A stretch of 64,000 bases of DNA, taken from NCBI GenBank assembly GCA_035481795.1, contig DATHRI010000007.1, forward strand, positions 73,939 to 137,938, written 5' to 3'. Under the pieces are notes generated by a model. The model was given only the letters and a program-made list of their open reading frames with translations, was not told where the DNA came from and did not search any database. This document shows, in pieces, positions 3,001 to 50,385 of the stretch. Every line of letters starts with the position of its first letter. Positions within the stretch are counted from its first letter, which is position 1. The position numbers and the translations under genes were made by a program. This DNA comes from Steroidobacteraceae bacterium (GTDB lineage: Bacteria > Pseudomonadota > Gammaproteobacteria > Steroidobacterales > Steroidobacteraceae).

Positions 3001-3239
3001 CCCGACGGCCGGGCTGCGCGCACCGCCTGCACCAGCGCCAGCCCGCGCGCCTGTACCGCGGCCGCGTCCGCCGCGGCAAGCCGCGCGCGCTCGGCGAGCG
3101 CGCGCACGATGGGCTCCTCCGGCGCGAGAAATGCCGAATTGATCACGCTGCCGACCGTGGAGGTGGGTGCAACGTCGTCCGGCACGACGAAGCGCACCGC
3201 GCGAGAAGGTGAAGAGTGCATGCTGCGAGTATAATTCAT
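39..3239 (-). CDS. putA: Bifunctional proline dehydrogenase / P5C dehydrogenase PutA (short form, no DNA-binding domain)
   Basis: Long ORF. PRODH region motifs [15 protein letters not shown] and [10 protein letters not shown], then aldehyde dehydrogenase motifs [18 protein letters not shown] and [10 protein letters not shown]. Start set to ATG 3239 (MNYTRS..); ATG 3221 is also possible. The ORF-track start 3437 would run through kbl. Confidence 0.9.
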
Positions 3240-3242
3240 GCG

Positions 3243-5473: not shown

Positions 5474-5583
5474 TGCGGACTCGTCGCCGCGCTGCCGGTG
5501 CGCATCACTTACTCGCGACGTCATCGCGGCAATCGCCTGAATTTAGTCATTAAAGCCCTCCCCTAATCTGCCCTGCCGCGGAG

Positions 5584-6009: not shown

Positions 6010-6109
6010 CTGCAGCCAATACGCCGGCGCAAGCGGCAGAACGACAGCCATGAGTGGATTCCGGTCTGCTACGGACGTCGCGCGGGACGCTACGTCTGCT
6101 TGGTGAAGA

Positions 6110-6580
6110 CTACAGTACAGGGCCGGCCTTCGACCCTGTGGCCGCTGCCTGCGGTGTCGGAGAATTTGGCGTCAATGTCATAGCCGTATTCTGTCCGGCC
6201 GGCCGCTGCCCAACGGCATACGGCGCAGCGCCAACCCGACCCCTGGCATAAATGCTGGCCGAACCATCGGCAGAAATCCTGCCGTCGAGCTGCAGCCAGC
6301 CCGGCTGCTCCTTCGTGCCCTTTTCACCATGCAAGACGCTATTGTTGACGATCGAATTGAATTCGAAGGAATAGCCGAGCGCGCCATTCGAATTTCCGCA
6401 GGACAGTCTGGTGTCCCAAATTCCGTCAAAACGGCTTGCGAGGCCGTCCCCGCGGGCAACGCCCAGCAGGTCGGGGACCAGGCATAGGCTTATCGCGACG
6501 AGACTCTTCACGACGCCGTTCTTTGTGCAGCGGGTGCACGCTTCGCGGAATATTGCAAAGAGCCGCATGAGCAAATCCAA
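6110..6580 (-). CDS. Hypothetical secreted protein
   Basis: 156-aa ORF with a hydrophobic N-terminal segment (VKSLVAISLCLV) and non-repetitive, protein-like composition. No family recognised. Start uncertain. Confidence 0.45.
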   Translation of the reverse strand: MDLLMRLFAIFREACTRCTKNGVVKSLVAISLCLVPDLLGVARGDGLASRFDGIWDTRLSCGNSNGALGYSFEFNSIVNNSVLHGEKGTKEQPGWLQLDGRISADGSASIYARGRVGAAPYAVGQRPAGQNTAMTLTPNSPTPQAAATGSKAGPVL

Positions 6581-6661
6581 TTCCGACCGAACCGCTGACC
6601 GAGCTTAACGCGACGACCGCGCCGGTCCATCGGCAATCCGCACGGCCAACTGGGACGAGGC

Positions 6662-23200: not shown

Positions 23201-23282
<82 letters not shown>

Positions 23283-23370
23283 TTTTTTTCAATGTCTTAC
23301 GATACATTATTAATGTAATTTCTTGACGCTGATTTTGTCTGGCGAGTAACGAATCGCCGAGCTTTATTCT

Positions 23371-23877: not shown

Positions 23878-24099
23878 ATGGCCACCATCACCCTTCGATT
23901 GCCCGATGCTCTGGACCACGCGCTCGAGCGTCAAAGTAATGCTGCTGGCGTCTCCAAGAGCGACCTAGCACGCGAAGCGCTGCGCAGATTTCTCACCGTA
24001 TCGGAGTTTCAGCGTTTGCGCGCGAGGCTCGTCCGTCGCGCTCAGGCCCAGGGCGTTCACATGGACGAAGATGTCTTCCGCTTGCTCGACCGGAAGTGA
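23878..24099 (+). CDS. Ribbon-helix-helix (CopG-like) antitoxin
   Basis: 73 aa. N-terminus MATITLRLPDALDHALE has an RHH beta-strand pattern. The stop overlaps the start of the downstream PIN gene (GTGA). Confidence 0.8.
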   Translation: MATITLRLPDALDHALERQSNAAGVSKSDLAREALRRFLTVSEFQRLRARLVRRAQAQGVHMDEDVFRLLDRK

Positions 24100-24497
24100 G
24101 GATCGTTCTGGACTCCTCCGCACTGATCGCCGCCGCGATCAGTCGAGCCGGCGTGTGCGCCGAATTGCTCGAGGATGTGCTCACGCACCATGAACTCGTG
24201 ATCTCGGACTTCATCACGCACGAACTCCGCCGCAAACTTCGCGACAAGTTTAATTTCCCGGAGAGTGAGGTCCGCCAGCTGCAGCGCTTTTTGGGCAAGG
24301 TGGCGACGGCGGTGGTCCCCGCGGACCTGTCGATGGATGTCTGCCGCGATCCGGCCGACATTCCAGTTCTCGGTACTGCCGTCGCCGGCAACGCATCGAT
24401 CCTAGTCACAGTGGACAAGAACCTCCTTACGATCCGCGAGTTTCAAGGCATTGCAATCATCAAACCGGGCGAATTCTGGCGACAGACCACGGGCTGA
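24096..24497 (+). CDS. PIN-domain toxin (putative ribonuclease)
   Basis: 133 aa. N-terminal IVLDSSALIAA with the first PIN acidic residue, plus later acidic positions (..CRDPADIPVLGTA.., TVDKNLL). Coupled to the RHH gene. Confidence 0.78.
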   Translation: MRIVLDSSALIAAAISRAGVCAELLEDVLTHHELVISDFITHELRRKLRDKFNFPESEVRQLQRFLGKVATAVVPADLSMDVCRDPADIPVLGTAVAGNASILVTVDKNLLTIREFQGIAIIKPGEFWRQTTG

Positions 24498-24676: not shown

Positions 24677-26577
24677 GTGCAACGCGAGAATCCCCGGACA
24701 CCTGCTCAGGGTGCAACGACGGCGATTGATGCCGCTCACATATTCGTCAGCCATGCCTCGCATGGATACGTCCATTGCGGTTGAGGTATGCAATGCGCTA
24801 GAGCGCCAGGGGCGACGCTGCTGGATCGCTCACCGAGACGTGGTGCCAGGGGAGTTGTATGCCGATGCCATCGTGCGAGCCATTGATGCCGCAAGCGCCG
24901 TGTTGCTGTTGTTGTCGCAACCTGCAGCTTCGTCGCCGCACGTGCTCAGGGAGATTGAGCGTGCCACTTCGAAACGACGGCCGGTATTGACGTTACGGAT
25001 CGACCTTGCGTCGATGCCACCCGCGCTCGAGTACTTTCTCAATGCCTCGCACTGGCTCGACGCGAGCGCTTCGGGCGTCCCCACCATTCTGCCAACGCTG
25101 GTCGACGCGGTGAACCGCCTAGGCGATCCTGCCTCCAGTACATTCAAGGCGCCGAACGCACCACGACCACAGGCTTCAGGTCCGGCATCAGTTGGTGTGG
25201 GTTCGGTGGCCCGCGCGAAATCCATCGCGGTGCTGCCATTTGCCAACATGAGTTCGGAGCCTGATCAGGAATTCTTCTCCGACGGGTTGGCCGAAGAGAT
25301 CATTAACCTGTTGACGCATACTCCCGGCCTGAAGGTGATGCGCGCACATCAGCCTTCGCCTTTCGGGGCAAGGAACAGGATATTCGTGGCATTGCGGATG
25401 CGCTCGGAGTGACTCATGTGCTCGCGGGCAGCGTGCGCCGGGCGGGCAATCGCCTGCGCATCACCGGGCAGTTGATTCATGCCGCTGATGGGACGCACCT
25501 GTGGTCGGAGCGGTACGACCGGCAAATGAGCGACATTTTTGCGATCCAGGACGAGATATCGACGGCAATCGTTGGAGCCCTGAGGATAAAGCTCTCGGAT
25601 GGGACTGGCTCAAGTCGATATACACCGAACCTTGCAGCCTATGAGGCCTACCTGAAGGCCAGGCATCTTGCACAAAAGGTCACGCCGGAGTCGCTGGAGC
25701 TGGCACGGCAAAGTTACGAACAGGCGATTCAACTTGACGCCGCTTTTGCCCTCGCTCATATCGGACTCGGATACCATTGGATATCCGTCATGATTTTCGG
25801 TCGCTGTTCCGCGCATGAGGTAGTGCCGGCGGCGCGCGCCGCAGCCCACAAAGCCCTGCAAATCGATCCCACACTTCCGGAAGCCCATGCGTTGCTGGGT
25901 CTGCTGGCAGCGATGTATGACTTTGACTGGGAGGCCGCTGAGCGCCACTTCGGCTTTCCGATGGCGAAGAGCGTAGGCTTTGTGTCTTCCGACCGAGTTA
26001 CAGCTGGTTCCAGTTCCTGTGCGGCCATGTGGAGCAGGCGATCGCGTTCGCCCGTCGCGGGATCGAGGAGGACCCGCTTGATGTATGGCCCCGGATGAAC
26101 CTGCAGGCCTATTTGCAGTCGGCGGGCCACCCGTCTGAAGCCCTCGAGCAACTGCAGAAGGTGCTTGAAATAGACGAGCACCAAGTGGTCGCCATGGTGG
26201 CCATGTCCATGATCTACGCCGACCGGGGCGATCTCGCACAGGCGCTGACGGTTGCGCGGCGGGCACATGCGCTCGCCCCATGGTATCTGGATGCGGTTGC
26301 GGTGCTTGCGGCGCTGCTACGGCGCAGCGGAGAGGGTGGGGCAGCGATGCCGCTGGAGCGGCTGCTGGATGCGGCACAGAGGATCGGCGATGCCCCGGCG
26401 CACGCGATCTTTCATCTGCTCTGCGGCCATGTGGATCAGGGGGCCGATTGGGCAGTAAAGGCCCTCGAAGAGCGTGACCTGTCGATTTCGATCTATCTCC
26501 GCTTCGTCGTGAGTAAAGACCTCAAAGCGAGCCCGCGCTGGCCGCAGATCGCGAAGCAGTTGAACCTGGAGGGATAG
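24677..26577 (+). pseudogene. Frameshifted TIR - IAVLPF module - TPR protein, a decayed paralog of 35647-37665
   Basis: Homology to the intact paralog runs through three reading frames and four frame segments. These are AAHIFVSHAS (from GTG 24677), ORF 24711-25412, ORF 25409-26098 and ORF 26029-26577. Frame switches lie near 24760, 25338 and 25990-26020. Confidence 0.8.
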
Positions 26578-35207: not shown

Positions 35208-35229
35208 TTCGAGTCCTCTCCTGGGCATT
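35208..35229 (+). repeat. attR-like direct repeat (orphan copy of the tRNA-Leu 3' end)
   Basis: Identical 22-mer to 23263-23284. No matching 5' acceptor strand (gcccagg) upstream, so it is a remnant and not a second tRNA gene. Confidence 0.85.
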
Positions 35230-35646: not shown

Positions 35647-37665
35647 TTAGCTCGGAAACTTCAACTCCCGCTCAATCGCCTGGAAGCGCGGCTCTTTGCG
35701 CAAGGGGTCCAGGAGCGGGTCGGTCTTTACGTATATCAGACCCGGGTCACGCAGCCGCAGCGCCGTCTCGAGCCATACGAGCGCCTTCGCCCGATTACCC
35801 CACTGCGCATAGATCGTGGCGTACTGGTACGCCGAGGCATCGCCATTTGCTGCCTTCAGTTTCGAAAGCACAGCTTCTGCATCGGGGTGCCGGCCGAGCT
35901 TGTCATAGGTCACCGCGAGGCACTGTTGACTCTCCCAGTAGTCCGGCTTCGTCTCGCATGAAGCGCGCGCGCGCTGCAAATCCCCGAGTTCGTAATAGGC
36001 GAGCCCGCGATCCGCGTAGGTCGCCTTGTAGTCAGGGTCAATATTGATGGCTTTTGCGAAAGCTGCAACTGCCTCCTCATAGCGGCGGGCTGCATGCAGC
36101 GCCCGGCCCAGCAGGGAATGGCTCAGGAGACCGAGCGGGTCGAGCACGACGGCGCGGCGGGCAGCCGCAAGACCCGCATCGAAGTGCCCCATGTAGACTG
36201 CAAATGCACCGCTATCTCGCACAACCTGGGCATTGCCCGGCGCGAGCGCCAGGGCGCGCTCGTAGGCTTCACTCGCGTGCCTGAAGTCGAGCGTGCTTTC
36301 CGAAACGAACGCCAATGCGAGGTGAGCCTGGGCCAGGTCCGGCGCGAGCGCGAGCGCTTGGCGCGCATCCGCTTGCGCCTTGTCATTGCCTTCACGCACC
36401 GCCTCTGGGGTCTCGGCCTCCCCGGCGGCAGTGGAAAGGGCGATCGATCGGGCTGCGAACGCGAGCGCATAGTGCGGATCCAAGCGGATTGCTTCCGTGT
36501 ACGCGGCAATCGCGGCTGGGAGGTCTTTGGCGTCGCGACTCGAGCGATACGCCTTAGCCCCGCGCAGATACGCGTCGAAGGCAGCCGGATTGCGCGTCCC
36601 GCCGAGCTCGACTCTGGCTGCGACATCGCCGAGTAGCGTGGCTTTCAGGGCGCTGGCTACCGCGGTGGCAATCTCGGTCTGCAGGTTCAGCACATCGCCT
36701 AAGTCCCGGTCATAGGTCTTCGACCACAGGTGAAAGCCCGTGACGGCATTGATCAGCTGCGCAGTGATGCGGATGGTGTTTGCCGAGCGCCGCACGCTGC
36801 CTTCGAGGACTGCGCCCACGTTCAGTTTGCGCGCGATCGTGCCGATGTCAGTGTCTTTGCCCTTGAACGAGAACGCCGAGGTGCGGGCGGCGACCTGGAG
36901 CTCATTGACCTCAGTGAGGGAATTGAGCAGCTCCTCCGTGAGCCCGTCCGAGAAATACTCCCGCTCCTTATCCCCGCTCATGTTGACGAACGGCAGCACG
37001 GCGATCGAGTGCGGCGGCGGGTTGAAGGCGATGGGGGCCGCGCCTGCGTGGGCGGCCGTCTCTGGCGTCGCGTGTTTGGGGATCCAGAACTCATTGGCGA
37101 GGAAGTACGCCAGCGCCGCGACGACGCCGACGGCAACGATCGCGAGCAGGACCGGCTTTGACCTCCGGGATGCGCGGACCGGCTCCGTTATTGCCACCGT
37201 AGCACCCGACACTGCGCTCATCGGCGACAGCTCCGGCGACAGCAGGCGCCGTATCCGTTCAACGAAGGCAGGAGGTGTCTCGTCTCCCGGCAGGCGCGTC
37301 CACTGCACCGCCCGGAAGGCGTCCGGGACAAAGGCCTCCTGATCGCGCGTACCGTCAACGACGACCGGTACCAGGAAGGGCTTCTGCTGGGCCATGTGAT
37401 GGGTGCGTTCGATTGCGAGATTCCACTCGTGCCGAAAATAGCCCTCGAGACGCTCCTGGGTGTGCTGCGAGACAATCGGAATAAAGAGCGCGCAATCGTG
37501 GATCTCGTGCCGGATCTTCTGATCCCACGCGTCCCCGCCGCGCAGCTCGCTCTGATCGAAAAAGACCTCGATGCCGGCGGCACGCAGTGCCGCGCAAATC
37601 TTCTGGGCCGCCTGCGCATCCTGCGAGGCGTAGCTCAGAAATACCGCGTGCGAGGGTTCAGTCAC
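35647..37665 (-). CDS. TIR domain - single TM - IAVLPF (TolB-N-like) module - TPR repeat protein
   Basis: N-terminal TIR_2-like region (AVFLSYASQDAQAAQKICAAL...GYFRHEWNLAIE). Hydrophobic helix PVLLAIVAVGVVAALAYFLA. SIAVLPFVNMSGDKEREYFSDGLTEE module. Long TPR array (AIRLDPHYALAF, ALALAPDLAQAH, AINIDPDYKATY). GTG start. Confidence 0.85.
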   Translation of the reverse strand: MTEPSHAVFLSYASQDAQAAQKICAALRAAGIEVFFDQSELRGGDAWDQKIRHEIHDCALFIPIVSQHTQERLEGYFRHEWNLAIERTHHMAQQKPFLVPVVVDGTRDQEAFVPDAFRAVQWTRLPGDETPPAFVERIRRLLSPELSPMSAVSGATVAITEPVRASRRSKPVLLAIVAVGVVAALAYFLANEFWIPKHATPETAAHAGAAPIAFNPPPHSIAVLPFVNMSGDKEREYFSDGLTEELLNSLTEVNELQVAARTSAFSFKGKDTDIGTIARKLNVGAVLEGSVRRSANTIRITAQLINAVTGFHLWSKTYDRDLGDVLNLQTEIATAVASALKATLLGDVAARVELGGTRNPAAFDAYLRGAKAYRSSRDAKDLPAAIAAYTEAIRLDPHYALAFAARSIALSTAAGEAETPEAVREGNDKAQADARQALALAPDLAQAHLALAFVSESTLDFRHASEAYERALALAPGNAQVVRDSGAFAVYMGHFDAGLAAARRAVVLDPLGLLSHSLLGRALHAARRYEEAVAAFAKAINIDPDYKATYADRGLAYYELGDLQRARASCETKPDYWESQQCLAVTYDKLGRHPDAEAVLSKLKAANGDASAYQYATIYAQWGNRAKALVWLETALRLRDPGLIYVKTDPLLDPLRKEPRFQAIERELKFPS

Positions 37666-37967: not shown

Positions 37968-38429
37968 CTATTGCTTGTCGAAGACAAGCGTCTCGTCGCC
38001 CGTGGCGCCGCTGAGCTGCACACCTGTGTTTTGTACCGTGAGCGTTTTGCCGTCTGCCGATACGACACGATGGACGTGGCCAACGACCTTGCCCTCCTTC
38101 TTGAGATCGAAGTCCCAAGTGTTTGCGTCGATCTTCTTGCCGAGCGTCGTATCCGCGGGCCCGCCCGGTCCCTGCTTTTCCTCTTTACCGTCGCGGTACT
38201 GCGCGCGCATCGACTTTTGCTTGCCATCTGCGCCTGTCAGCTTCTGGTCGAGCGTGTACAGGCCTTTGGCTTCGGTGTAGACACGGGTGCCGGCGGTCAG
38301 CTCTGAGCCCGCATTGAACTTCGATTTCGCGACATTGAGCTTCCAGGTGCCCACGACCGGGTCTGCCGCGAATGCCGGGCTGGCGAAGAACACTCCTGCG
38401 AGCACGATGAGTGAGAGTATCTTTTTCAC
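37968..38429 (-). CDS. Secreted hypothetical protein (small beta-rich, lipocalin-like guess)
   Basis: Clear signal peptide MKKILSLIVLAGVFFASPAFA. Mature part begins DPVVGTWKLN. No family recognised with certainty. Confidence 0.7.
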   Translation of the reverse strand: MKKILSLIVLAGVFFASPAFAADPVVGTWKLNVAKSKFNAGSELTAGTRVYTEAKGLYTLDQKLTGADGKQKSMRAQYRDGKEEKQGPGGPADTTLGKKIDANTWDFDLKKEGKVVGHVHRVVSADGKTLTVQNTGVQLSGATGDETLVFDKQ

Positions 38430-40646: not shown

Positions 40647-41153
40647 ATGACAGAAGAACACACCATCGACCAAGGCGCCGTCACCCGCAAGCTCAAAGTT
40701 CTGGCGCAGAAGATGCCGCTAAGGATTCTCGTCGTTGACGACGATGAACTTGAGCGCGAGCTGATTGCGGACCGGCTCAAGGCACACGACTTCGAAGTCG
40801 CGTGCGCAGCCAATGGCGAAGAAGCGCTCGCCCTTCTCGAAGGGCAGTCCATCCCTGTAATATTGGTCGATTGGGCGATGCCGATCATGAACGGTATCGA
40901 ACTCACGGAGCAGTTGCGAAGCCGGGGCACAGACGATTCTTGCATCATCATGCTCACCTCCCGCGACCGCACACTCGACTACGAGGCAGCCTACCGTGCT
41001 GGCGTCGACGATTATCTAACCAAGAAAGTGCATGACACGGAACTGCTGGCACGCATTCACGCTGGCTTAAACACTTTTGCCCTGCGGCGCTCGCTGAAGG
41101 ACGCCCGCGCTGCACTTGCGGATGCTCTGGCGAGTCAGGCGCACGCAGCTTAG
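40647..41153 (+). CDS. Single-domain response regulator (CheY-like)
   Basis: ILVVDDDELE...VILVDWAMPIMNG...LTKK receiver motifs. AAGGAA upstream of the ATG. Confidence 0.88.
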   Translation: MTEEHTIDQGAVTRKLKVLAQKMPLRILVVDDDELERELIADRLKAHDFEVACAANGEEALALLEGQSIPVILVDWAMPIMNGIELTEQLRSRGTDDSCIIMLTSRDRTLDYEAAYRAGVDDYLTKKVHDTELLARIHAGLNTFALRRSLKDARAALADALASQAHAA

Positions 41154-41449
41154 TCGGACCATGGGTCGGTGCTTTTCCCGACATCGTGAAAGTGTGATGC
41201 GCTGCCAGTACCTATGTGCGCGAACGAACTGACGCTACTGGCAACTGCGCCCACTCTCATTGCAATGCTTTCGAAGCGCTCCGCTGCGCGGCGGCCATAT
41301 TCGCACGCGGGCTTTAAGGAGTCGCTGGCGAAGAGCTGTGGATGTCCGCTGCTTCAACTCGTCCCGCGACAATAAATCATCTAACGCACTCGCTGTAGGA
41401 GCCGATTGGCGATGCACCAGTGCGACTGCCCGGAACTGGCACAGTTGCA

Positions 41450-42442
41450 ATGCAGGAGAGCATGAGTCAAATGGAACCCGACCTCGGCACTACCACGCAG
41501 GTTCTGAAGCTTCCGTTTGCAGTTCCGCCCCGGGTATTGCTTGTCGATGACGACGAGCTCGCATTGGCAGCGCTGCAGAGTCTCGTAACGGCTGCGGGTC
41601 TTGAGGTCGCTACAGCGCTCAGCGGTGCCGCGGCATTGACGTCTCTGCAGGAGACTTTTGCACCAATAGTCATAATGGATCTGAAAATGCCCGACATGGA
41701 TGGTCTCGCGGTATGCCGCACCATCCGCCAGCGAACATGGCCAGGCTATGTCTATATCGTACTTCTGACAATACAAGACGCTGAAGACGACGTTCTTGCG
41801 GGTCTTGATGCCGGGGCCGACGACTATATGAGCAAGCGGATGTCATCCGCGCACCTGTTGGCACGGCTGCGCATCGCGCAACGCATTTTAGCACTGGAAC
41901 AGTCACTCAAAGACGCCTTGGCGGAAAAGCGCCGTCTGACAATGACCGACCCATTGACCGGTGCGCCGAATCGGCGCTACTTCAAGCGACGTCTGAGCCG
42001 GGAGCTCGAACGCATGCGCCGCTTTGGAGGCGAGCTATGTCTGATGTCCCTCGACATCGACCGTTTCAAACAGATCAATGATCGCTACGGACATTCTTCA
42101 GGCGACGCGGTGTTGCAGGAGTTCGTGCGGCGCATGGGCCAGTGTTTGCCGCGCAACACCGACTGGTGCGCGCGGATGGGCGGGGAGGAATTTGTGGTGG
42201 TCCTTGAAGGGACTAATCTCGTAGGTGCAAAGAAGGTAGCCGAACGGCTTCTCGAAGCCATGGCGGCCCCACCGATGCGAACGCAAGCGGGCATGATCGA
42301 TGTGACGGTCAGCATTGGAGTGAGTGGGCTGGAGGCCGCCGCAGATCACAAGGAATTAAGCGTCGAGTCGCTCATGCGTGTCGCAGACGGACGTCTTTAC
42401 CAGAGCAAAGAGAACGGTCGGAACCGCGTTACCTTGTCCTAA
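41450..42442 (+). CDS. Response regulator - diguanylate cyclase (REC-GGDEF)
   Basis: Receiver (VLLVDDDELA..IMDLKMPDMDG) plus GGDEF with an intact GGEEF active site and an RNTD I-site 5 aa upstream. Start ambiguous (41420, 41450 or 41462). Confidence 0.88.
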   Translation: MQESMSQMEPDLGTTTQVLKLPFAVPPRVLLVDDDELALAALQSLVTAAGLEVATALSGAAALTSLQETFAPIVIMDLKMPDMDGLAVCRTIRQRTWPGYVYIVLLTIQDAEDDVLAGLDAGADDYMSKRMSSAHLLARLRIAQRILALEQSLKDALAEKRRLTMTDPLTGAPNRRYFKRRLSRELERMRRFGGELCLMSLDIDRFKQINDRYGHSSGDAVLQEFVRRMGQCLPRNTDWCARMGGEEFVVVLEGTNLVGAKKVAERLLEAMAAPPMRTQAGMIDVTVSIGVSGLEAAADHKELSVESLMRVADGRLYQSKENGRNRVTLS

Positions 42443-42493
42443 CTGAGCACAAAAACGCGACCGGCCGGAAATGGAAAATGAAAGGAGGCGCAG

Positions 42494-43255
42494 ATGAACG
42501 CGACGGAATTGCGAACAGTACTGTATATCGACGACGAGCCGCATATTCGAGAGATCGTGCAAATTGCGCTCGGCCTCTCAAATGAACTCAAGGTCCACAC
42601 CGGCGAATCGGGCGCTCAGGCGCTCGAGCTTGCCCGCGAGCTGCAACCGGATGTACTGCTGCTTGACGTGATGATGCCAGGCCTCGATGGACCCGCAACC
42701 CTGAGCAGGATGCGTGCTGATCCCGCGATTGCTCACATACCGGTCATCTTCGTAACCGCCAAAGCCATGCCGCGCGAAGTTGCGCTGTTTCGCAAAATGG
42801 GTGCCATCGGCATCATCGCCAAGCCTTTTGATCCGATGCAGCTCACCAAACAGCTGCGTTCCCTGTGGGAAGGACATACCGCCAAAGCGCCGCCTCTCGA
42901 TGAGCGCATGGATAAACGAATCCTACAGCGCGAGGTGACGCAGCTTGGGAGAAGATTTTTGGAGCGCACGAGAGGTGAGGCGATCACACTGCATTCGCTG
43001 GTGGAGCACGCCCATAACGGCGATCCACTCGTCATCGATCAAATCGAGCACCTGGCGCATAAAATTCGCGGCAGTGGATCAATGTTCGGGTACGCGGCAG
43101 TGAGCGCTTGCGCCGGCGATCTCGAGTGCCTTGTCGAGGGAGTGAGATTGCGTCAGGAGTCAGCCGGCGCCGCCATCGAACCGCAAGTCCTGCAAGATTT
43201 AATCGTCTGCACCCAGCGGCTCTCGCAAGCAGTCGAAGCGGCGGAATCGACTTAG
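42494..43255 (+). CDS. Response regulator receiver - HPt fusion protein
   Basis: Receiver (VLYIDDEPHI..VLLLDVMMPGLDG) followed by HPt motif HLAHKIRGSGSMFG. Strong RBS AAAGGAGG. Confidence 0.85.
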   Translation: MNATELRTVLYIDDEPHIREIVQIALGLSNELKVHTGESGAQALELARELQPDVLLLDVMMPGLDGPATLSRMRADPAIAHIPVIFVTAKAMPREVALFRKMGAIGIIAKPFDPMQLTKQLRSLWEGHTAKAPPLDERMDKRILQREVTQLGRRFLERTRGEAITLHSLVEHAHNGDPLVIDQIEHLAHKIRGSGSMFGYAAVSACAGDLECLVEGVRLRQESAGAAIEPQVLQDLIVCTQRLSQAVEAAEST

Positions 43256-43258
43256 GGT

Positions 43259-44830
43259 TCAAACATCCGGCCGCTCCACAAGTGAGAGAATTGTATGCAC
43301 GATGTGCGCCTCTGATACGCGCGATTTGACGAGCGTAGCGGCGACTCGCTGCTGCACATCACGTGCGACTTCAGAGGCAGAGAGAATTACAACCGGCAGC
43401 GGCTGGGAGACGAGGCTCGGCAGCCTCTCGAGCAAGCTGAGGCCCGTGCCGTCCGGCAAGCCCATATCGAGCACCAGCAACGAGAAGTTCTCCTCGCGCA
43501 GCAGCGCTTCCGCTGCTCGCAGTGTGCAGGCAAGCACGACTTCGGCGTTGCCGGCCAGCGCCATCTCGAGCACATGGCTCAGATCCTCGTCGTCTTCCAC
43601 GTGCAATATGCGGGGAGTGGCCGTGCGCTCCTGCAACGCTTCGGCTTTGTCCGTAAAAATCGGTGCCCGAAAGGTCTGCGTATCCGACTGCGTGACGGCT
43701 GGCGCCAGTTGCAGCGTTTGACCCGCTTGCGGCAATTCGAAATAGAAAGTCGTGCCTTGACCTGTGATGCTGGTAAATCCGATCGTGCCGCCCATCGCCT
43801 CCAATAGCTGTCGCGTGATGCTTAATCCCAGACCCGTGCCCTCAAAGTGACGGGACGTGGAAGAGTCGGCCTGCGCGAATTTCTCGAATACATGCTGCCG
43901 AAATTCCTCAGGAATGCCTGTGCCGCGATCCTCGATTTCGATCCGCACGTGAGTGCCGCGTGCAATCGTGCGCACTTGGACGGTGCTACCTGCGGGGGAG
44001 AACTTGGCGGCGTTCGACAACAGATTCGCCATCACCTGCATCAAGCGGTCCGGATCGGCCGCCACTTCCATACTTGCTGGCGTGTCTTCGAGCACAAATT
44101 GCACCTGGTACTTCACGCCATAGGCCTGGTTGACTGCTAACGCTTGTTGCAAAAACGCCATCACGCGCACGCTTTCGGTCCGCATCTCCAAGCCGCCGGA
44201 CTTGATCTTCTCGACGTCGAGAATGTCATTAATGATGCGCACCAGCCGCTCGCTGTTCTGATGCGCAATCTTCACCATCGTCGCTGCCTTCTCCGGCAAC
44301 ATTCCAAGAACGCCCGCGTCGATAAGCCCTAAGGCGCCGCGAATCGAGGTTAGTGGCGTTCGCAGCTCGTGACTCACCGTGGAGATGAAGTCGTCCCGAA
44401 GCTGCAGCTGCAATTTTCGGACCTGGTCCGTCTCGACTTCCATGCGCTTTCGCTCGATGGCATACCGCAGAGATCGAAGAAGCGCCTGGGCCTGGATTTG
44501 GCCCTTAATGAGGTAGTCTTGTGCGCCCTCATGCAACGCCTCTGTAGCGACTGCTTCATCGTCGAGACCCGTGAGTACAACCAGTGGAATGCGCGGCGCG
44601 ACCGCGTGCATCTCGCGCACCGCCGCTATTCCCATCGCGTCAGGCAATCCGAGATCGAGCAGCACAATGTTTGCGACCTTCGTCGACAGATGGGTGAGTG
44701 CGTCCTTCATACATCCGTGATGCGTTAACTCCAGCTTGACCGAGCTTGACTCCCTGAGCATTTCCTGCAACAACCGGGCATCTCCCGGATTGTCCTCGAT
44801 CAAGAGCACTTGAATTGGCTGGGCGCTCAT
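43259..44830 (-). CDS. Hybrid sensor histidine kinase (REC - HisKA - HATPase - REC)
   Basis: N-terminal receiver ([18 protein letters not shown]), H-box [14 protein letters not shown] boxes, C-terminal receiver ([21 protein letters not shown]). Confidence 0.9.
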
Positions 44831-45285
44831 TTGGCCGTGGTTCGTGGCAACTTGACCTTCGTCAGCCAGAAGTCGTTAATGCTCTTGACGAGGTCCTCAA
44901 ACGCTTCCAAGAGCACGGGTTTCGTCAGGTAGCAGTTTGCATGGAGTTGATAGCTCCTTACGATGTCCGCTTCCGCACTGGAGGTAGTCAGAATGACCGT
45001 CGGGATCAATTTAAGGCTGGCATCCTTCTTGATGTGAGCGAGAAGCTCGCGGCCATCCATTTTCGGGAGGTTCAGATCGAGCAGGATCAGATCCGGACGC
45101 GGAGCAGCGGCGTGGGCGCCGGCACGCCTTAGAAAGGCCAAGGCCTCTACGCCGTCACTCGCTACATGCAATTTGATAGTAGTGTCGGCTTCGCGGAAAG
45201 CTTCCTGCGTCAGCCGGATATCGCCGGGATTGTCCTCGACCAAGAGGACTTCGATAGGCTTACCGCCTTCGCCAATGATTTTCAA
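44827..45285 (-). CDS. Single-domain response regulator (Rcp1-like)
   Basis: [15 protein letters not shown]...[13 protein letters not shown]. 4-nt overlaps with both flanking kinase genes. Confidence 0.9.
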
Positions 45286-47771
45286 GATGTGATTTCCCCT
45301 GCTGCCAATGCAAATCGGAAGGTAGAACCCTGTCCGAGTTGCGACTCAACCGAGATTCGGCCGCCGTGTCGTTCGACAATCCTCTTGCAGATAGCCAATC
45401 CTATGCCGGTACCGGCGAACTCTCCCCGCTTGTGCAGCCGCTGAAACATGCCAAAGATACGTTCGAAGTATTGCGGCTCGATTCCGAGCCCATTGTCCTG
45501 AACGGAAAATGTCCATTTTTTCCCACCATTGCGAGCGGCGGCAATCTGCACCCGCGGAGTTCCCGGACTCTGATACTTGATAGCGTTGCCTATCAGGTTC
45601 TGAAATAGTTGAATCAGCTGAATCTTGTCCGCCATGACGCTCGGCAGGGGATCGTGCGTTACGACAGCGCCGCTATCCTTAATGACGTCGCGCAGGTTCT
45701 GCAGTGCCTGCCCCAATGCGTCTTCACTGGAGATATCGCGCAGGTTTCCCGCTTTTGACCCCACTCGCGAGTAGGCGAGCACGTCCTGGATCAATCGCTG
45801 CATGCGGCTGACCCCGTCCACGGCGTACGCGATGAACTCATCGGCGTCGGAGTCGAGCCTTCCCTTATAGCGTCTCGCAAGCAGCTGCGTGTAGCTCGCG
45901 ACCATGCGTAAGGGCTCCTGCAAGTCATGCGAGGCAATGTTGGCAAATTGCTCAAGATCTTCATTCGAGCGATTGAGGTAGAAAACATCAGCTTCGGCTT
46001 TCTTGCGCACGCTGATGTCGCGGATTGCGGCGGTCACCAGCATGCCTTCGGCGCTTTCCAGCGGGCTCAACATGAGCTCGAGTGGAAACTCGCTGCCATC
46101 CTTGCGCCGCCCGGAAAGCTCAATGCCAGTGCCGATCTGCTGCGCCAGCGCCTCGGCGGCACTTCGGGCATCATCAGCGATCAGCCGTTCCGCGAATCCC
46201 TTGGGAATGATGTTCTTCACCTGCTGGCCCAAGAGCTCATCGCGGCGGTATCCAAATTGCTTTTCCGCCTGCACATTCAGCAGCACGATGTCGCCTGCCT
46301 GGTTCACGACCACCATCGCATCCGGAGCGGCTTCCAGGAGCCCCCGGTAGCGGCTCTCCATCTGCACCATATGCTTCTCGGCTGTCTTGCGCACGCTGAT
46401 GTCGCGGATTGCGGCGGTCACCAGGATGCCTTCGGCGCTTTCCAGCGGGCTCAACATGAGCTCGAGTGGAAACTCGCTGCCATCCTTGCGCCGCCCGGAA
46501 AGCTCAATGCCAGTGCCGATCTGCTGCGCCAGCGCATCTTCGGCGGATCGCAGGCCGTCTGCCACGAGACGCTCGGCAAATCCTTTGGGAATGATGTTCT
46601 TCACCTGCTGGCCCAAGAGCTCATCGCGGCGGTATCCAAATTGCTTCTCTGCCTGCACATTCAACAGCACGATGTCGCCTGCCTGATTCACGACCACCAT
46701 CGCATCCGGAGCGGCTTCCATGAGCCCTCGATACTTCGCCTCTGACTCCTTCCTCTCGCTCAGATCGCGTGTGACCTCAGAAAATCCCCGCAGCATTCCG
46801 GCTGCGTCGCGCAGTGCCGTGAAGGTGACGCGCGCCAGAAATTCTGAGCCGTCTTTGCGCACGCGCAGGCTCTGTTCTTCGTGCCGACCGCTCTCGACCG
46901 TAATCCGGAGGACCTCAGCCGGCCTACCCCGCGCAATGTCTTCTGGTGGAAAAAAGCGGGAGAAGTTCTGACCGACGATCTCTTCGGCGCGGTAACCCTT
47001 GATGCGTTCAGCGCCGACACTCCATGTCATGACCTGTCCGTGCGGATCTAGCATGAGGATCGCGTAGTCCTGTACTTCGGACACGAGCATCCGATATTTC
47101 TCTTCGCTTTCCCGCAGTGCCTTCGCTGCGAGTGCTCGTGTCAAGTTGTCGCGAAGAATGCTCCAGCCTGCGGCAGCCGTAATCAACAAGCCGAGGATCG
47201 TCCCGAGAAGCAACACCGTCTTGGTCTCGCCGAATTTGTATTTGGCGTCTGCATCGCGTTGCACCAGCAATCCGAGCTCCTCGTCCTCCAGCTTGCGCGC
47301 CTCCGCCTGAAAGGCATCCGAGACCAGCTCGCCGCGCCCCGTTTGAGCCATTGTTGCTGCTTCCACGCCCTGGGTACGGCGCAGGCCAATAACCATTTCA
47401 GCCAATTGGATCCGTTGGGCAATCAGTGCTTCGAGGCCTTGAAGCGCGCGCTGTTGTTTGGGGTTATCCTCCGTCAGGCGCCGAACTGTTCGCACGGACA
47501 GTGTTGCGCGTGCGAGACTTGCGCGGTAGGACTCGACGTAAGATTCATCGCCAGTCAGTACATATCCGCGGCTACTCGACTCAACGCCCTTGAAAGCGAG
47601 CCGCACCTTCTGCAGGTTCTCCAGAACCTCGTGGGTGTGTTGCACCCATCGGGTGCTATCACTGAATACGCCTATGCTGTAATAGGAGAACGCTCCTACA
47701 ACGAGTAAGGCGACAATGGCAGCCCCGAAGGCGAGCTGCACCTTGCGATTTAGCACGGTGTAGATCTTCAC
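45282..47771 (-). CDS. CHASE3 - PAS x3 - histidine kinase
   Basis: N-terminal TM - CHASE3-like periplasmic region - second TM. Three PAS domains, two nearly identical. H-box [12 protein letters not shown] and an HATPase domain. Confidence 0.9.
46012..46779. repeat. 384-bp tandem duplication inside the kinase gene (two PAS modules)
   Basis: 46012-46160 vs 46396-46544 differ at 1 position. 46199-46345 vs 46583-46729 differ at about 6 positions. A ~50-nt patch between these blocks is strongly diverged. Confidence 0.9.
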
Positions 47772-48189
47772 TGCGCACCACTCCAGCGGGCGCGGATCGA
47801 AAAGTGTCCGCGCTGAGCCGTTCCTTGAGGATCTTCGGAAGGACGTTAGTCACCACGCGATCAGAAAACCGGATCCGTCAGGGGATCGACAGGTTATCTC
47901 GGATACTGCCAGCATCTACTAGTTTGAAGCCGCGGTATGTCCGGTGGGTCACAGCCTGAAAACTAAGGCAACAGATCCGATCAAAAAATGCACCACGTGC
48001 CAGAGTGTGCTGCCGTCTTACGTCCACGTGCGGTGCCCGCAGCGATCGAGCGCGTCTTCTAAATCATGATGGCCGGCGACGCTCAGTATGTGACCCAAGT
48101 CCCAATTGACGAATGAGTTAGGTTCGCTACGTTAGCTACCGCACCGTGCGGCGCACGCTAATCTTGCTACTACAGTCGCCGAGGTTTGA

Positions 48190-50385
48190 ATGCATGGCGA
48201 CATGATGTCTCAACAAATCATACTCCTGATCCAGGAAGATTCCGCGGATGCCACGGCTGTGCAGGAGGCGCTGAGTAACTCAATCGATGGATTCTTCAAA
48301 GTCGAATGGATCAGAGGGTGTATCGAGGGTCTGCAACGACTGGCAGCGGAAGGAAACCAAAGGGGAGATCGAATAGCAGCAATTTTGGTCGACCTCTTTC
48401 TGACAGACAGTCACGGGATCGAGACATTCGATAAGCTCTTTCACGCCGCGCCGCAGATACCGATCCTCGTCCTCACAAGCTCGCAGGATGAGGATATTGC
48501 CAAACTGGCAGTCCAGCGTGGCGCGCAGGATTATCTCCTAAAGGCGCGCCTCGACAGTTACCTCTTGCCGAAGGCCTTAAACAGCATGATTGGGCGGGCG
48601 GCCAACGCCGAGGCGTTGTTCGAAGAAAAGGAACGCGCCCAAGTAACACTCGACTCTATCGGCGACGCGGTCATGAGCACTGACATTTGGGGCCAGGTTA
48701 CCTACCTCAATGTGGTGGCGGAAAGTCTGACCGGCTGGTCGCGCGAGGATGCGGCAGGCCACGCTTTTGAGGAAGTGTTCCGCATTATCGATGCCGGAAC
48801 CCGCGAGCCCTTGCAGAACCCTATGACGTTTGCGATTCAGGAAAACCGGACCGTAGGCTTGACGCCGAATTGCATCCTGATCCGACGGGACGGCCATGAA
48901 GCCGCAGTCGAAGATTCAGCGGCACCCATTCACGATCGTCGCGGACGTGTAACCGGCGCTGTGATGGTTTTTCATGATGTGAGCGCTGCGCGGTCGCTGT
49001 CGCTTAGGATGTCTTATCTCGCCCAGCACGACAGTCTCACCGATTTACCCAATAGAACGCTATTGAATGACCGCCTGGCGCAGGTAATTGCTCTAGCCTA
49101 CCGTAACCAGCACAAGTTCGCGCTGCTGTTTCTGGATGTGGACCGTTTCAAACATATCAACGACTCTCTAGGCCACGCCGTCGGCGACCGCCTGCTGCAG
49201 TCGGTGGCGCAGCGTCTAGTAGCGTGCGTTCGTAGCTCAGACACCGTGAGCCGTCAAGGGGGCGATGAATTCGTCGTCCTGCTATCGGAGATGAAGCACG
49301 CAAAGGATGCCGCCATCATCGCGGATAAGATTCTGTTGGCACTCGCTACACCTCACAACATCGATGAGCATGAGCTGCACGTTACTGTGAGCATCGGCAT
49401 CGTTACGTACCCTGCTGATGCGACCGAGGCGGAGACGTTGATGAAGAACGCGGACTTTGCGATGTACCACGCCAAGGAAGCCGGGCGCAATAACTATCAA
49501 TTCTTCAAGCCAGACATGAACCTTCGTGCAGTCGAGCGACAATCCCTCGAGACCGGGCTGCGCCATGCTTTAGAGCGAGAGGAGTTTGTGTTGCATTATC
49601 AGCCCAAAATAGATTTGCAGAACGGATCCATAATCGGAGTCGAGGCGCTCATCCGCTGGCGCCATCCCCAGCGCGGTCTCGTGTCCCCAGCGCAGTTCGT
49701 ACCCGTAGCGGAAGAATGTGGCTTCATAGTACCCATCGGCCGGTGGGTATTGCGCGAAGCCTGCCGGCAAGCCCGGATGTGGCAGGACTGGGGTCTGCCC
49801 GCGCTACGCATCGCAATTAATATCTCTCCGGTCGAATTACGCGCCAAGGATTTCGTCGCCGGAGTGCGCGGTATTCTGGCGAAGACCGGGCTTGAAGCGC
49901 GCTATCTGGAACTCGAACTTACCGAAACTTTTCTAATGCAGGACTCGAGATCAACCGTTGCTGTCCTCAAAGACCTCAAAGACATCGGCGTGCATCTCGC
50001 CCTCGACGACTTTGGTACTGGCTACTCAAGCTTGAGCTACGTGAAACGTTTTCCAATCGACACCCTGAAAATCGATCAGTCATTTGTCCGCGATATTGCT
50101 ACCGATGCGGACGACGCGAGTATCGTCAGCGCTGTGATTAGCATGGGAAAGAGCCTCCATATGCGCGTTGTTGCAGAGGGAATCGAAACACAAGGGCAGC
50201 TCGAATTTCTACAAAAGCACAGCTGCCCGTTTGGGCAGGGCTACTTGTTCAGTCCACCACTGGGAGCTTGGGAATTCGCCCAATTACTGGGACACAGCAA
50301 AAGAACCGTAGCCGAGACCACTGTTGCGCAATTAAGCAGTCTCGGTGAAGAACGGCCGTCTTGGCGCGTCGGCCAAAAGGCGTGA
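48190..50385 (+). CDS. REC - PAS - GGDEF - EAL protein (paralog 1)
   Basis: Receiver-like N-terminus. PAS, then GGDEF with an intact GGDEF site and an RSSD I-site. EAL domain (EALIRW, DDFGTGYSSL). ATG 48190 has a GAGG RBS. Paralog alignment favours ATG 48205 (MSQQIILL). Confidence 0.9.
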   Translation: MHGDMMSQQIILLIQEDSADATAVQEALSNSIDGFFKVEWIRGCIEGLQRLAAEGNQRGDRIAAILVDLFLTDSHGIETFDKLFHAAPQIPILVLTSSQDEDIAKLAVQRGAQDYLLKARLDSYLLPKALNSMIGRAANAEALFEEKERAQVTLDSIGDAVMSTDIWGQVTYLNVVAESLTGWSREDAAGHAFEEVFRIIDAGTREPLQNPMTFAIQENRTVGLTPNCILIRRDGHEAAVEDSAAPIHDRRGRVTGAVMVFHDVSAARSLSLRMSYLAQHDSLTDLPNRTLLNDRLAQVIALAYRNQHKFALLFLDVDRFKHINDSLGHAVGDRLLQSVAQRLVACVRSSDTVSRQGGDEFVVLLSEMKHAKDAAIIADKILLALATPHNIDEHELHVTVSIGIVTYPADATEAETLMKNADFAMYHAKEAGRNNYQFFKPDMNLRAVERQSLETGLRHALEREEFVLHYQPKIDLQNGSIIGVEALIRWRHPQRGLVSPAQFVPVAEECGFIVPIGRWVLREACRQARMWQDWGLPALRIAINISPVELRAKDFVAGVRGILAKTGLEARYLELELTETFLMQDSRSTVAVLKDLKDIGVHLALDDFGTGYSSLSYVKRFPIDTLKIDQSFVRDIATDADDASIVSAVISMGKSLHMRVVAEGIETQGQLEFLQKHSCPFGQGYLFSPPLGAWEFAQLLGHSKRTVAETTVAQLSSLGEERPSWRVGQKA

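Follow-up and report, generated by a model that had tools for sequence, protein, structure and literature searches.

SARM1 and the bacterial TIR enzymes SPARTA TIR-APAZ, TIR-SAVED, AbTIR, PdTIR and BtpA share the TIR fold, a W/Y-x-x-x-E motif and a glycine in the BB-loop, and induced oligomerization is the general rule by which catalytic TIR enzymes are activated. SARM1 and the bacterial effector TIRs respond to cytoplasmic triggers (the NMN/NAD+ ratio, guide-target duplexes or cyclic nucleotides), and every described bacterial TIR system that we found in the literature senses its trigger in the cytoplasm. Thoeris places a ThsB-type TIR beside the gene of an effector (ThsA, whose effector domain may be SIR2, Macro, TM or another), type I CBASS and Pycsar have a linked CD-NTase or pyrimidine cyclase and carry SAVED or STING on the TIR protein, and STAND/Avs-like proteins hold an NTPase between effector and repeats. 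E. coli TIR-II, compared here by its published description, combines a TIR domain containing the catalytic Glu with TPRs in one polypeptide that has no obligatory partner (PMC11350192). In the same survey, single-protein TIR systems from E. coli genomes, TIR-II among them, guard the host against phages and act on phage proteins expressed intracellularly; TM and TPR segments belong to different systems, with neither a TM between TIR and TPR nor a TolB_N-like module, and TLR-type membrane and repeat features seem to be missing from bacterial TIR systems (PMC11350192).

Receptors with an extracytoplasmic sensor are found among animal TLRs, which are type I proteins with an N-terminal LRR ectodomain as solenoid sensor, a single span and a cytoplasmic C-terminal TIR that is regarded mainly as an adaptor, and in the CadC/ToxR-type family. 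E. coli CadC (3ly7-3lya for its periplasmic domain) has a cytoplasmic winged-helix effector, one TM and a periplasmic sensor in which an alpha/beta subdomain is followed by a helical TPR-like bundle.

The stretch of Steroidobacteraceae DNA analyzed here (64,000 nucleotides, referred to as the window) carries a gene that joins these layouts (Table 1). A sequence-only reading of this DNA did not recognize the single-gene architecture as a described system, and our literature search likewise found no description of a TIR-TM-TPR architecture. Where STAND/Avs-like proteins have an NTPase, this protein has a membrane helix and a TolB_N-like module; unlike in the systems of PMC11350192 its TPR array has a predicted periplasmic location, and unlike in SARM1 and the bacterial effector TIRs its head would be regulated across the membrane.

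Table 1 Features of the TIR-TM-TPR gene and its surroundings, in positions of the window
Feature	Position	Strand	Basis
Intact 672-aa gene: TIR, membrane helix, TolB_N/FlgO-like module, TPR array	35647..37665	(-)	ORF listing, domain matches, homologs, AlphaFold2
TIR domain, residues 6-142, predicted cytoplasmic head	37240..37650	(-)	Pfam TIR_2, family profile, hhalign to SARM1, model
Gly44 codon, BB-loop DQSELRGGDAW	37534..37536	(-)	unchanged in 80/80 relatives, SARM1 alignment
Glu80 codon, predicted catalytic Glu, Y76-x-x-x-E80 on helix C	37426..37428	(-)	invariance, alignments, codon check
Single TM helix, residues 171-193, preceded by RASRRSK	37087..37155	(-)	hydropathy, relatives, model
Alpha/beta module IAVLPF..YFSDGLTEE..LEGSVRR, residues 216-345, TolB_N/FlgO-like	36631..37020	(-)	profiles, model, Foldseek
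TPR array and end-cap, residues 355-667	35665..36603	(-)	Pfam TPR, NCBIfam TPR_END_plus, pLDDT > 90
Cys570 and Cys582, co-varying pair in sensor	35920..35958	(-)	aligned relatives, codon check
22-bp direct repeat of tRNA-Leu 3' end, att-like island junction	35208..35229	(+)	exact match to 23263-23284, E = 8e-7
tRNA-Leu(cag)	23201-23282		
Decayed paralog in island: TIR, module and TPR over three frames, membrane helix deleted	24711..26577	(+)	tblastn, TIR_2 and TPR matches

Results

The gene is intact and has full-length homologs

The open reading frame starts with GTG, and its GC3 of 0.77 is usual for coding sequence in the window. It is not a chance frame: the best 120 homologs of the first search were all full length with 76-84% identity, and each of both homolog searches returned at least 8000 scored candidates. 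The TIR and TPR parts that had been read from the DNA were recovered by the Pfam and NCBIfam domain matches, and the same two libraries gave no NTPase domain; the protein has no signal peptide. A promoter scan found no sigma-70 consensus site upstream of the gene, a result that is uninformative for a high-GC host.

An AlphaFold2 model built from a 58-sequence alignment (42-84% identity) reached a mean pLDDT of 80.6, with only moderate confidence in the TIR (70-88) and in the middle module (64-86). An earlier model, computed from 30 homologs of ~80% identity, was unusable because its TIR and middle module fell below 50. Foldseek matches to the whole model were dominated by TPR proteins.

The TIR head retains a predicted catalytic site

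Pfam TIR_2 matched residues 8-128 with a score of 81.8 bits (E = 7.2e-23), above its cutoff of 28, which bears out the TIR_2-like domain proposed at first sight. A profile of the family matched 28 TIR chains among solved structures at E <= 0.01, including 7uxr, 3h16, 6wt6, SARM1/tir-1, SPARTA and Cat1, and hhalign aligned the SARM1 TIR over the whole domain as tabulated. The modeled strands and helices alternate as in TIR folds. When solved structures were searched with the TIR as a single sequence, only strands A-C were aligned and the Glu was not reached.

The conserved Glu context pointed out earlier centers on Glu80, which is unchanged across sets of 30, 58 and 80 relatives, the set of 80 having 38-55% identity. 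The family profile places Glu80 opposite the 'WSKFE' Glu of 6wt6, and hhalign pairs Glu80 and Tyr76 with the E and W of SARM1 'WVHKE' and Gly44 with the Gly of the SARM1 BB-loop 'EAGK'. The conserved Glu, between strands C and D, thus falls at what we take to be the position of SARM1 E642, the NADase Glu. Glu80, Gly44, Ser66 and Trp122 are all unchanged in 80/80 relatives. The Glu and the BB-loop, which the sequence-only reading had marked for inspection in a structural model, are both present in a TIR-like fold. BB-loop residues 39-43 have a low pLDDT, which fits the mobility expected of this loop.

The best TIR matches in PADLOC are effector-type NADases, namely the pAgo-associated TIR (1.4e-11) and TIR-SAVED (1.3e-09), the latter matched by its TIR part alone over residues 1-70. 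ThsB models gave partial matches only (E = 1.7e-3 to 9.4e-3). No PADLOC-DB v2 model matched the full length of the protein, and all 11 matches were confined to the TIR region (residues 1-107).

A single helix separates the head from the sensor

The one strongly hydrophobic helix noted from the DNA (residues 171-193) is the sole hydrophobic peak of the protein, with a 19-residue Kyte-Doolittle mean of 2.77 at residues 171-190, and AlphaFold2 predicted a helix at 172-193. A hydrophobic segment (KD >= 1.6) is kept in 79/80 relatives, mostly at residues 160-190, and the helix sequence itself is poorly kept (19% identity in the family). The basic stretch RASRRSK flanks the helix on its N-terminal side; across the family, the 15 residues on either side contain 3.2 versus 2.2 K/R, a modest positive-inside bias. 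The nearest sensors, 58-70% identical, stand with a TM helix behind Ser/Thr-kinase or CadC/OmpR-type DNA-binding heads. Because such heads must be cytoplasmic, the TIR probably faces the cytoplasm too, with the sensor in the periplasm, and the N-in/C-out topology that we infer from these sequence comparisons agrees with the placement first suggested. The order of N-terminal effector, single TM and C-terminal sensor is found alike by hydropathy, in relatives, in the model and in the kinase- and wHTH-headed siblings. A cyclase-headed protein encoded on S. meliloti pSymA (WP_164820585.1) shares the module and TPR array; it has no membrane helix and is wholly cytoplasmic, and therefore this type of sensor is not intrinsically periplasmic.

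The parallel with animal TLRs drawn in the sequence-only reading stands for the overall layout, since both have an extracytoplasmic solenoid sensor, a single span and a cytoplasmic TIR. It does not extend to the orientation, which is reversed here with an N-terminal TIR, nor to the repeats, which are TPR and not LRR; the catalytic Glu is also kept here, in contrast to the mainly adaptor role ascribed to the TIRs of TLRs. The likeness is convergent, with the TIR domain alone being homologous.

The sensor has sub-cutoff similarity to that of CadC and diverges fastest in its TPR array

The alpha/beta module recognized earlier as preceding TPR arrays in adenylate-cyclase-like regulators is present and conserved (56% mean pairwise identity within the family), and it does occur in adenylate-cyclase-headed proteins. 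Some relatives match Pfam FlgO (2.3e-20) and TolB_N (4.9e-20). Positions 218-390 of the NCBIfam CadC model NF007540 aligned with residues 231-412 (E = 1.8e-7, 30.4 bits, where the cutoff is 400), and the module profile gave marginal matches to solved structures (E = 0.04-0.4), including 5t10/5t11 and FlgO structures. In the AlphaFold2 model the module has a beta-alpha...beta-beta-beta-alpha fold. Foldseek also brought up 3ly8, 3ly9 and 3lya, structures of the periplasmic domain of CadC, with E ~ 1e-5 and alignments of ~350 columns; against 3ly8 the values were E = 8e-6 and a target-normalized TM-score of 0.38. The module may correspond to the first half of a CadC-like sensor.

The long TPR array, likewise read from the DNA, was recovered by several Pfam TPR families above their cutoffs at residues ~425-570 and by the NCBIfam 'TPR end-of-group' model (TPR_END_plus), which scored 52.2 bits at 612-664, above its cutoff of 32. 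It is the most divergent folded part of the protein, with a mean pairwise identity in the family of 27% versus 58% for the TIR. Such divergence is expected of a recognition surface, and the array is presumably the variable, ligand-binding part. Cys570 and Cys582 are both Cys or both not Cys in 57/58 and 74/80 aligned relatives, and may form a disulfide; this co-variation speaks for the proposed topology.

The order of parts is that of CadC and other CadC/ToxR-type proteins, but the head is a TIR and not a winged helix, and the TPR array is much longer. The receptor would work like this family while standing outside it, the Trans_reg_C effector being missing: that head occurs only in siblings, and TIR_2 takes its place here. 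With a TIR in place of the winged helix, the receptor cannot control transcription directly.

Output heads are exchanged on a common sensor

At E <= 1e-30 the family comprises 35,940 representatives, all head types pooled, and the scan of genomes confirmed at least 588 relatives, again with every head type counted. It is far from rare, being one of the larger uncharacterized receptor families in environmental metagenomes. The sensor (module and TPR) is common to Ser/Thr-kinase-, wHTH- and cyclase-headed siblings at up to 70% identity; in wHTH-headed siblings, whose head type is that of CadC, the sensors are 58-66% identical. The TIR gene represents one of several outputs within a modular family of receptors whose heads are swapped. 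Since the nearest relatives are bitopic CadC/ToxR-type proteins together with kinase and cyclase siblings, signal transduction is indicated at least as much as defense. A search of 50,697 phage genomes gave no match to the family, and 2.9 million viral contigs held none of full length.

The gene has no conserved partner and lies beside an island junction

The sequence-only reading had listed SIR2/Macro ThsA, cyclase, STING and STAND NTPase partners as absent nearby, and domain scans agree: SIR2, Macro, STING, CD-NTase and STAND NTPase domains were absent from the neighbors scanned (21-50 kb), no SAVED gene is nearby, and the only cyclases near the gene are GGDEF proteins. The linked genes of type I CBASS/Pycsar are accordingly missing, and so is a Thoeris-type effector neighbor anywhere in the window. 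Neither 26 genome loci nor the seven contexts of ~80%-identical homologs, which all differ from each other, yielded a conserved partner gene or a recurrent defense gene; among 191 neighbors of the 26 loci the sole recurrent cluster was the family itself. The Pfam content of neighbors is mostly housekeeping or metabolic. Genes flanking the receptor in the window are not linked to other family loci, with one exception: the upstream gene of 153 aa has a homolog near a family member in locus L080, which we treated as chance and not as synteny.

As reported from the DNA, the gene lies directly outside an island junction, where a 22-bp copy of the tRNA-Leu end is found 418 bp from its stop codon. 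The decayed paralog described inside the island was also recovered, as pieces in three frames with TIR_2 and TPR matches on three ORFs. It is collinear with the intact TIR-headed relative P0259 apart from two frame changes, and lacks ~50 residues that include the TM of P0259 (187-205); this deletion and the two frameshifts rule it out as a TM-less subtype. The defense-type reading proposed from this setting finds no backing in the wider context, which has no recurrent defense gene and mostly housekeeping or metabolic neighbors, or in phages, from which the family is absent.

Discussion

We lean, with moderate confidence, towards a self-contained, CadC-style bitopic inner-membrane receptor whose output is TIR-catalyzed NAD+ cleavage. 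The N-terminal TIR would stay in the cytoplasm, helix 171-193 would cross the inner membrane, and the C-terminal 480 residues, a TolB_N/FlgO-like module followed by a TPR array as in a CadC-like sensor, would lie in the periplasm. There the variable TPR array may bind a ligand or sense the state of the envelope. Sensing would change how the receptor oligomerizes and so draw its TIR domains together. As in other catalytic TIRs, their association could build an active site, with Glu80 and the BB-loop at its center, that cleaves NAD+. The consequence would be either lowered NAD+ or the release of ADP-ribose-type products onto unlinked targets. Because no effector gene is conserved beside it, the output is most likely carried by the receptor protein itself. 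What the analysis shows directly are the domains, a helix kept across the family, an unchanging Glu, the exchange of heads and the lack of a partner gene; the topology, activation by oligomerization, cleavage of NAD+ and a role in the cell are inferred.

The same architecture could serve single-gene, anti-phage abortive infection, in which the periplasmic TPR array detects phage parts or envelope damage while a phage adsorbs or its DNA enters, and the TIR responds by depleting NAD+ and halting growth, which would make the protein a true functional analogue of Toll-like receptors. The precedent of single-protein TIR systems that protect E. coli (PMC11350192), the defense effector TIRs as best matches of the head, and the position at an island junction beside a decayed paralog all favor such a role, and an arms race would fit the expansion of paralogs and the rapid divergence of the TPR array. 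Toxin-antitoxin genes also recur nearby (RHH/PIN in the window as read from the translations, HigB in locus L001, PIN in L081 and L082), L082 has a SLFN_AlbA_2 gene as well, and in Novosphingobium sp. RL4 (NZ_CP141945.1, ~491-493 kb) the gene adjoins those of a CHAT protease and a Tle1-like phospholipase. However, no PADLOC family occurs in more than 3/111 neighbor proteins, a count reached only by additional TIR proteins; the neighborhoods are mostly housekeeping or metabolic, and several close homologs adjoin core genes (ychF, pth, the L25 gene and prs). The closest sensor relatives are ordinary signal-transduction proteins, the phage genomes and viral contigs lack the full-length family, and PADLOC models give no full-length match. 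An anti-phage role is possible but has no support from context, and we regard abortive infection of this kind as unlikely.

If the TIR were instead an assembly or adaptor domain and not an enzyme, clustering of the sensor would recruit TIR or other cytoplasmic partners encoded elsewhere, in the manner of TLR adaptors. TIR proteins do stand side by side at some loci (three in 9 kb in L086), TIR_2 is found in 3/111 neighbors, TIR domains have a scaffold role in animals, and conservation of the Glu, being not always matched by NADase activity, is no proof of catalysis (TIR survey, PMC7075850). Against this, an adaptor-like partner is not conserved nearby, and 80 diverse relatives all keep the BB-loop Gly, the Glu and, four positions ahead of the Glu, the aromatic residue, which is hard to explain without catalysis and makes a purely adaptor function quite improbable. 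An envelope-biogenesis or scaffold protein, with a structural TolB_N/FlgO-like and TPR part (cf. PilF/PilW, NlpI, FlgO) and an accessory TIR, would account for the many family members that JGI names 'TolB-like protein' plus PilF, TadD, NlpI or a generic TPR term, for weak partial NCBIfam matches to PilW, NlpI, Tgl and GltE, and for the FlgO and TolB_N matches of some relatives. The NCBIfam matches reflect generic TPR similarity far under the family cutoffs, though, pilus, flagellar and Tol-Pal genes are not linked, and the heads are exchanged with kinase, wHTH and cyclase domains. Such interchange marks the C-terminal part as a sensor and not a structural element, and an envelope role seems to us highly improbable.

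Returning to the receptor with NADase output, we raise tentatively, and as a doubtful proposition at this stage, that the TIR-headed proteins form a large undescribed bacterial class of transmembrane TIR receptors, in which an extracytoplasmic TPR sensor controls a cytoplasmic TIR NADase. With thousands of members, a kept helix, an invariant Glu and a fast-diverging sensor predicted to face outward, the family would close the gap left by systems that sense in the cytoplasm. In one form this class would match Toll-like receptors in function and provide the first prokaryotic immune receptor to sense attack from outside the cytoplasm; in the other, NAD+ products made by TIR domains would be a general, non-immune sensing output beside kinase, DNA-binding and cyclase outputs. 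Near-identical sensors on kinase, DNA-binding and cyclase heads offer a natural experiment on whether TIR chemistry serves as ordinary signaling or only as an immune or suicide effector, and Novosphingobium sp. RL4, a cultured carrier, makes the receptor family testable.

Domain organisation and predicted active site

The sequence-only reading had described an intact gene for a TIR, membrane helix and TPR protein, and the ORF listing returned it as 672 codons from a GTG start, with a GC3 of 0.77, in line with other genes of the window. JGI metagenome 3300050821 is the source of the window, which lies on a 120-kb contig. The proposed domains were likewise recovered: Pfam TIR_2 matched residues 8-128 (E = 7.2e-23, 81.8 bits vs a cutoff of 28), several Pfam TPR families exceeded their cutoffs at residues ~425-570, and a 'TPR end-of-group' domain (NCBIfam) covered residues 612-664. 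A 19-residue Kyte-Doolittle scan gave a single hydrophobic peak at residues 171-190 (mean 2.77), flanked by RASRRSK on its N-terminal side and by one basic residue on its C-terminal side. An AlphaFold2 model built from a 58-sequence alignment (mean pLDDT 80.6) has a helix spanning residues 172-193, then a folded alpha/beta module (220-345), which holds the IAVLPF..YFSDGLTEE motif, and a confident TPR solenoid (360-667). Mean pairwise identity in the family alignment was 58 % for the TIR, 56 % for the module, 27 % for the TPR array and 19 % for the linker/helix region, which keeps its hydrophobicity only, not its sequence.

Glu80, in the FRHEW motif, is invariant in 30 close homologs, 58 of mixed distance and 80 at 38-55 % identity, as are Phe9, Ser11, Gly44, Ile51, Ser66 and Trp122. 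The TIR-domain profile matched solved bacterial and eukaryotic TIRs, namely 7uxr, 3h16 (PdTIR), 6wt6 (TIR-STING), SARM1/tir-1, SPARTA TIR-APAZ, Cat1 and TIR-SAVED, and set Glu80 opposite the Glu of 'WSKFE' in 6wt6. Using hhalign, we aligned the human SARM1 TIR to residues 6-142; Glu80 was set opposite the Glu in 'WVHKE', Tyr76 opposite the Trp of that motif and Gly44 opposite the Gly of the BB-loop. In the AlphaFold2 model this domain alternates strands and helices, as a TIR should; Glu80 falls on helix 76-88, and the BB-loop is flexible. A TIR survey found an inter-strand Glu, shortly after the conserved Ser/Thr ending strand C, to be critical for NADase activity, with the caution that conservation of this Glu does not always equal activity (PMC7075850). 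The catalytic Glu is thus intact, being invariant and aligned with those of TIR-STING and SARM1, and the protein is a TIR superfamily member with predicted catalytic hallmarks.

Sensor and membrane topology

In some relatives the module reached Pfam FlgO (2.3e-20) and TolB_N (4.9e-20). Positions 218-390 of the NCBIfam CadC model corresponded to residues 231-412 at E = 1.8e-7, far under that model's cutoff, and Foldseek recovered the CadC periplasmic domain (3ly8, 3ly9 and 3lya; E ~ 1e-5, ~350 columns) amid many generic TPR matches. In the TPR part, Cys570 and Cys582 are both Cys or neither in 57/58 and 74/80 relatives, a co-variation that would fit a disulfide in an oxidising compartment.

An exhaustive representative search revealed proteins 58-70 % identical to this sensor, vs 39-56 % for most TIR-headed relatives. 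Among ten such proteins, three carry a Ser/Thr kinase and four a Trans_reg_C winged-helix domain as head, and in all ten a hydrophobic helix directly precedes the IAVLPF motif. Kinases and DNA-binding domains have to be in the cytoplasm, which should place the sensor outside; the TIR lacks a signal peptide and requires NAD+, and would occupy the same position as these heads. This comparison is the strongest argument for the probable N-in/C-out topology. The cytoplasmic TIR, single helix and external repeat sensor of the sequence-only reading are therefore retained as a prediction from these siblings, but the likeness to Toll-like receptors extends to logic only, with a reversed orientation, TPR in place of LRR repeats, and homology confined to the TIR. 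A cyclase-headed sibling from S. meliloti (WP_164820585.1) has the module and TPRs and lacks the membrane helix, so the sensor can also work in the cytoplasm. Matches to the module also occur in 568 plasmid records; most of these are rhizobial (Rhizobium, Sinorhizobium, Bradyrhizobium), and a record often has several.

Family distribution and genomic context

Two word-indexed searches each gave at least 8000 scored candidates, and 35,940 proteins reached E <= 1e-30 in an exhaustive search of 50 %-identity representatives; of the top 150, about 90 were TIR-headed over their full length. With one genome per species, TIR-headed members occurred in Steroidobacteraceae, other Gammaproteobacteria, Burkholderiales, Verrucomicrobiota/Opitutales, Pyrinomonadaceae, Caulobacteraceae and Usitatibacteraceae, all of them MAGs. 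The nearest genome relatives are uncultured Gammaproteobacteria (L001, 76 % identity; a Steroidobacteraceae MAG, 65 %). Databases give family members generic names ('TolB-like protein/TPR', 'TIR domain-containing protein', 'tetratricopeptide repeat protein'). The single cultured carrier found was Novosphingobium sp. RL4 (NZ_CP141945.1; TIR_2 E = 1.1e-20), whose translated ORF has KLSRRR ahead of a helix at its residues 179-197, and a WVRDE motif. No family match was present in 50,697 phage genomes, and 2.9 million viral contigs yielded nine, all partial.

Four giant relatives (P0121, P0125, P0142 and P0159; 2200-2800 aa) matched the sensor in 4-8 separate stretches: entire sensor units follow one another in tandem within a single chain. 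P0148 (1172 aa, Opitutae), with a TIR head, matched the query in two stretches and may carry a second sensor unit.

When 191 neighbours within 4 genes on either side of 26 TIR-headed genome loci were clustered, the only cluster in more than three loci was the family itself (9 loci). In a PADLOC and Pfam scan of 111 proteins within 3 genes on either side, no PADLOC family occurred in more than three neighbours, those at three being further TIR proteins; Pfam content was largely housekeeping or metabolic (tRNA synthetase, MutS, peptidase M13, BamB-type, GGDEF/EAL, hydrolases). As the sequence-only reading had noted for the window, known partners are absent: no linked effector was found there, and none recurred in more than three loci among the 191 neighbours. 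Homologs at ~80 % identity shared no two contexts (L001, L081, L082, L083, L086, L089, L090). The L086 arrangement, seen in three samples, is a local paralog amplification; its 627-aa protein has TIR_2 only on record and no TPR matches. Unlike most MAG loci, the Novosphingobium locus has neighbours of conflict type.

Features of the window and of loci carrying family members or homologs
Feature	Position	Strand	Description
tRNA-Leu(cag)	23201-23282
22-bp repeat	23263-23284 = 35208-35229		exact, E = 8e-7; last 20 bases of tRNA-Leu plus two more
Island segment	23263-35229		~12 kb between att-like repeats
Putative RHH antitoxin and PIN (VapC-like) toxin	23878-24497	+	overlapping 73-aa and 133-aa ORFs, by reading translations
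Decayed paralog	24711-26577	+	TIR_2, IAVLPF module, TPRs over three reading frames
TIR gene	35647-37665	-	672 aa
153-aa unannotated gene	37968-38429	-	upstream of TIR gene; hydrophobic signal-peptide-like N-terminus
Signalling cluster	40647-50385		response regulator (RR), RR-GGDEF, RR-Hpt, hybrid histidine kinase, another RR, CHASE3-PAS histidine kinase, RR-PAS-GGDEF-EAL protein
L001			HigB toxin gene three genes upstream
L080	8784-9236		homolog of 153-aa gene
L081			PIN gene directly upstream, metabolic genes around
L082			PIN/RHH pair and SLFN_AlbA_2 gene downstream
L083			three genes, last a DNA pol III alpha-type polymerase; looks like imuA-imuB-dnaE2 cassette
L086	3792-12304		three TIR-headed proteins (685, 661, 627 aa) within 9 kb on one metagenome contig
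L089			ychF, pth, L25 gene, prs
L090			wHTH-headed sibling
L091 (Novosphingobium sp. RL4)	515-6837		662-aa protein (no Pfam matches, divergent from TIR receptor gene), CHAT-domain protease, Tle1-like phospholipase (917 aa)
L092 (S. meliloti pSymA)	2437-4200		WP_164820585.1

The island next to the TIR gene

The island junction and decayed paralog of the sequence-only reading both proved real. The distal repeat lies 418 bp from the TIR gene stop codon. No integrase was found among scanned ORFs of the ~12-kb segment, which holds two alpha/beta hydrolases, a cupin, a LysR regulator, an OsmC protein, an FAD oxidoreductase, a methionine-pathway enzyme / Cys/Met PLP enzyme, a CoA-binding protein, a TA-like pair and the TIR pseudogene, and looks like an old, immobilised island. 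The putative RHH/PIN pair is directly upstream of the paralog, which has lost ~50 residues, membrane helix included, relative to its nearest intact relative (P0259). We considered the paralog as a soluble subtype and rejected this; its three frames and the ~50-residue loss mark a pseudogene.

The TIR gene is convergent with a CoA-binding gene and a Cys/Met PLP-enzyme gene. Overall it behaves as a mobile, often duplicated, sometimes decaying accessory gene without a partner. The defence part of the suggested accessory or defence-type turnover is not backed by context: the loci examined had no consistent defence-island signature.

Upstream lies the 153-aa gene and, beyond it, a two-component/c-di-GMP cluster. 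A 53 %-identical homolog of the 153-aa gene lies in L080, a Gammaproteobacteria MAG, ~800 bp upstream of a gene of the family whose match spans residues 175-670 only (TM to C-terminus). No other flanking gene occurred a second time, and this co-occurrence may be coincidence. GC falls in steps, from 0.62-0.68 in the first ~22 kb to 0.59-0.63 over the island and 0.56-0.61 beyond 38 kb, which suggests a mosaic origin; the 2-kb bin of the TIR gene stands out at 0.65.

Proposed function

Searches for the defining partners or domains of Thoeris, CBASS/Pycsar and STAND receptors found none, which rules out these systems. As anticipated, no described system with the TIR-membrane helix-TolB_N-like-TPR architecture was found in open-access papers and preprints, and an earlier computational mention is possible. 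In its predicted layout the TIR protein works like CadC and ToxR, but it lacks their defining DNA-binding head.

The best-supported reading of the observed domains, conserved helix, invariant active-site residues, head interchange and lack of a linked effector is a putative self-contained CadC-style transmembrane receptor with a catalytic TIR as output. Oligomerisation is the general activation rule of TIR NADases. By analogy, sensor-driven oligomerisation would activate the TIR, and the output would be NAD+ cleavage. A TLR-like, anti-phage function is possible. In its favour are a known case of single-protein TIR+TPR defence in E. coli (PMC11350192), locations rich in TA genes or at an island edge, and the CHAT protease and Tle1-like phospholipase in Novosphingobium sp. 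RL4; however, neighbourhoods are mostly housekeeping and the closest relatives are of signal-transduction character. A TIR acting purely as a scaffold is a weaker alternative to the catalytic receptor, and a structural role in the envelope is weaker still.
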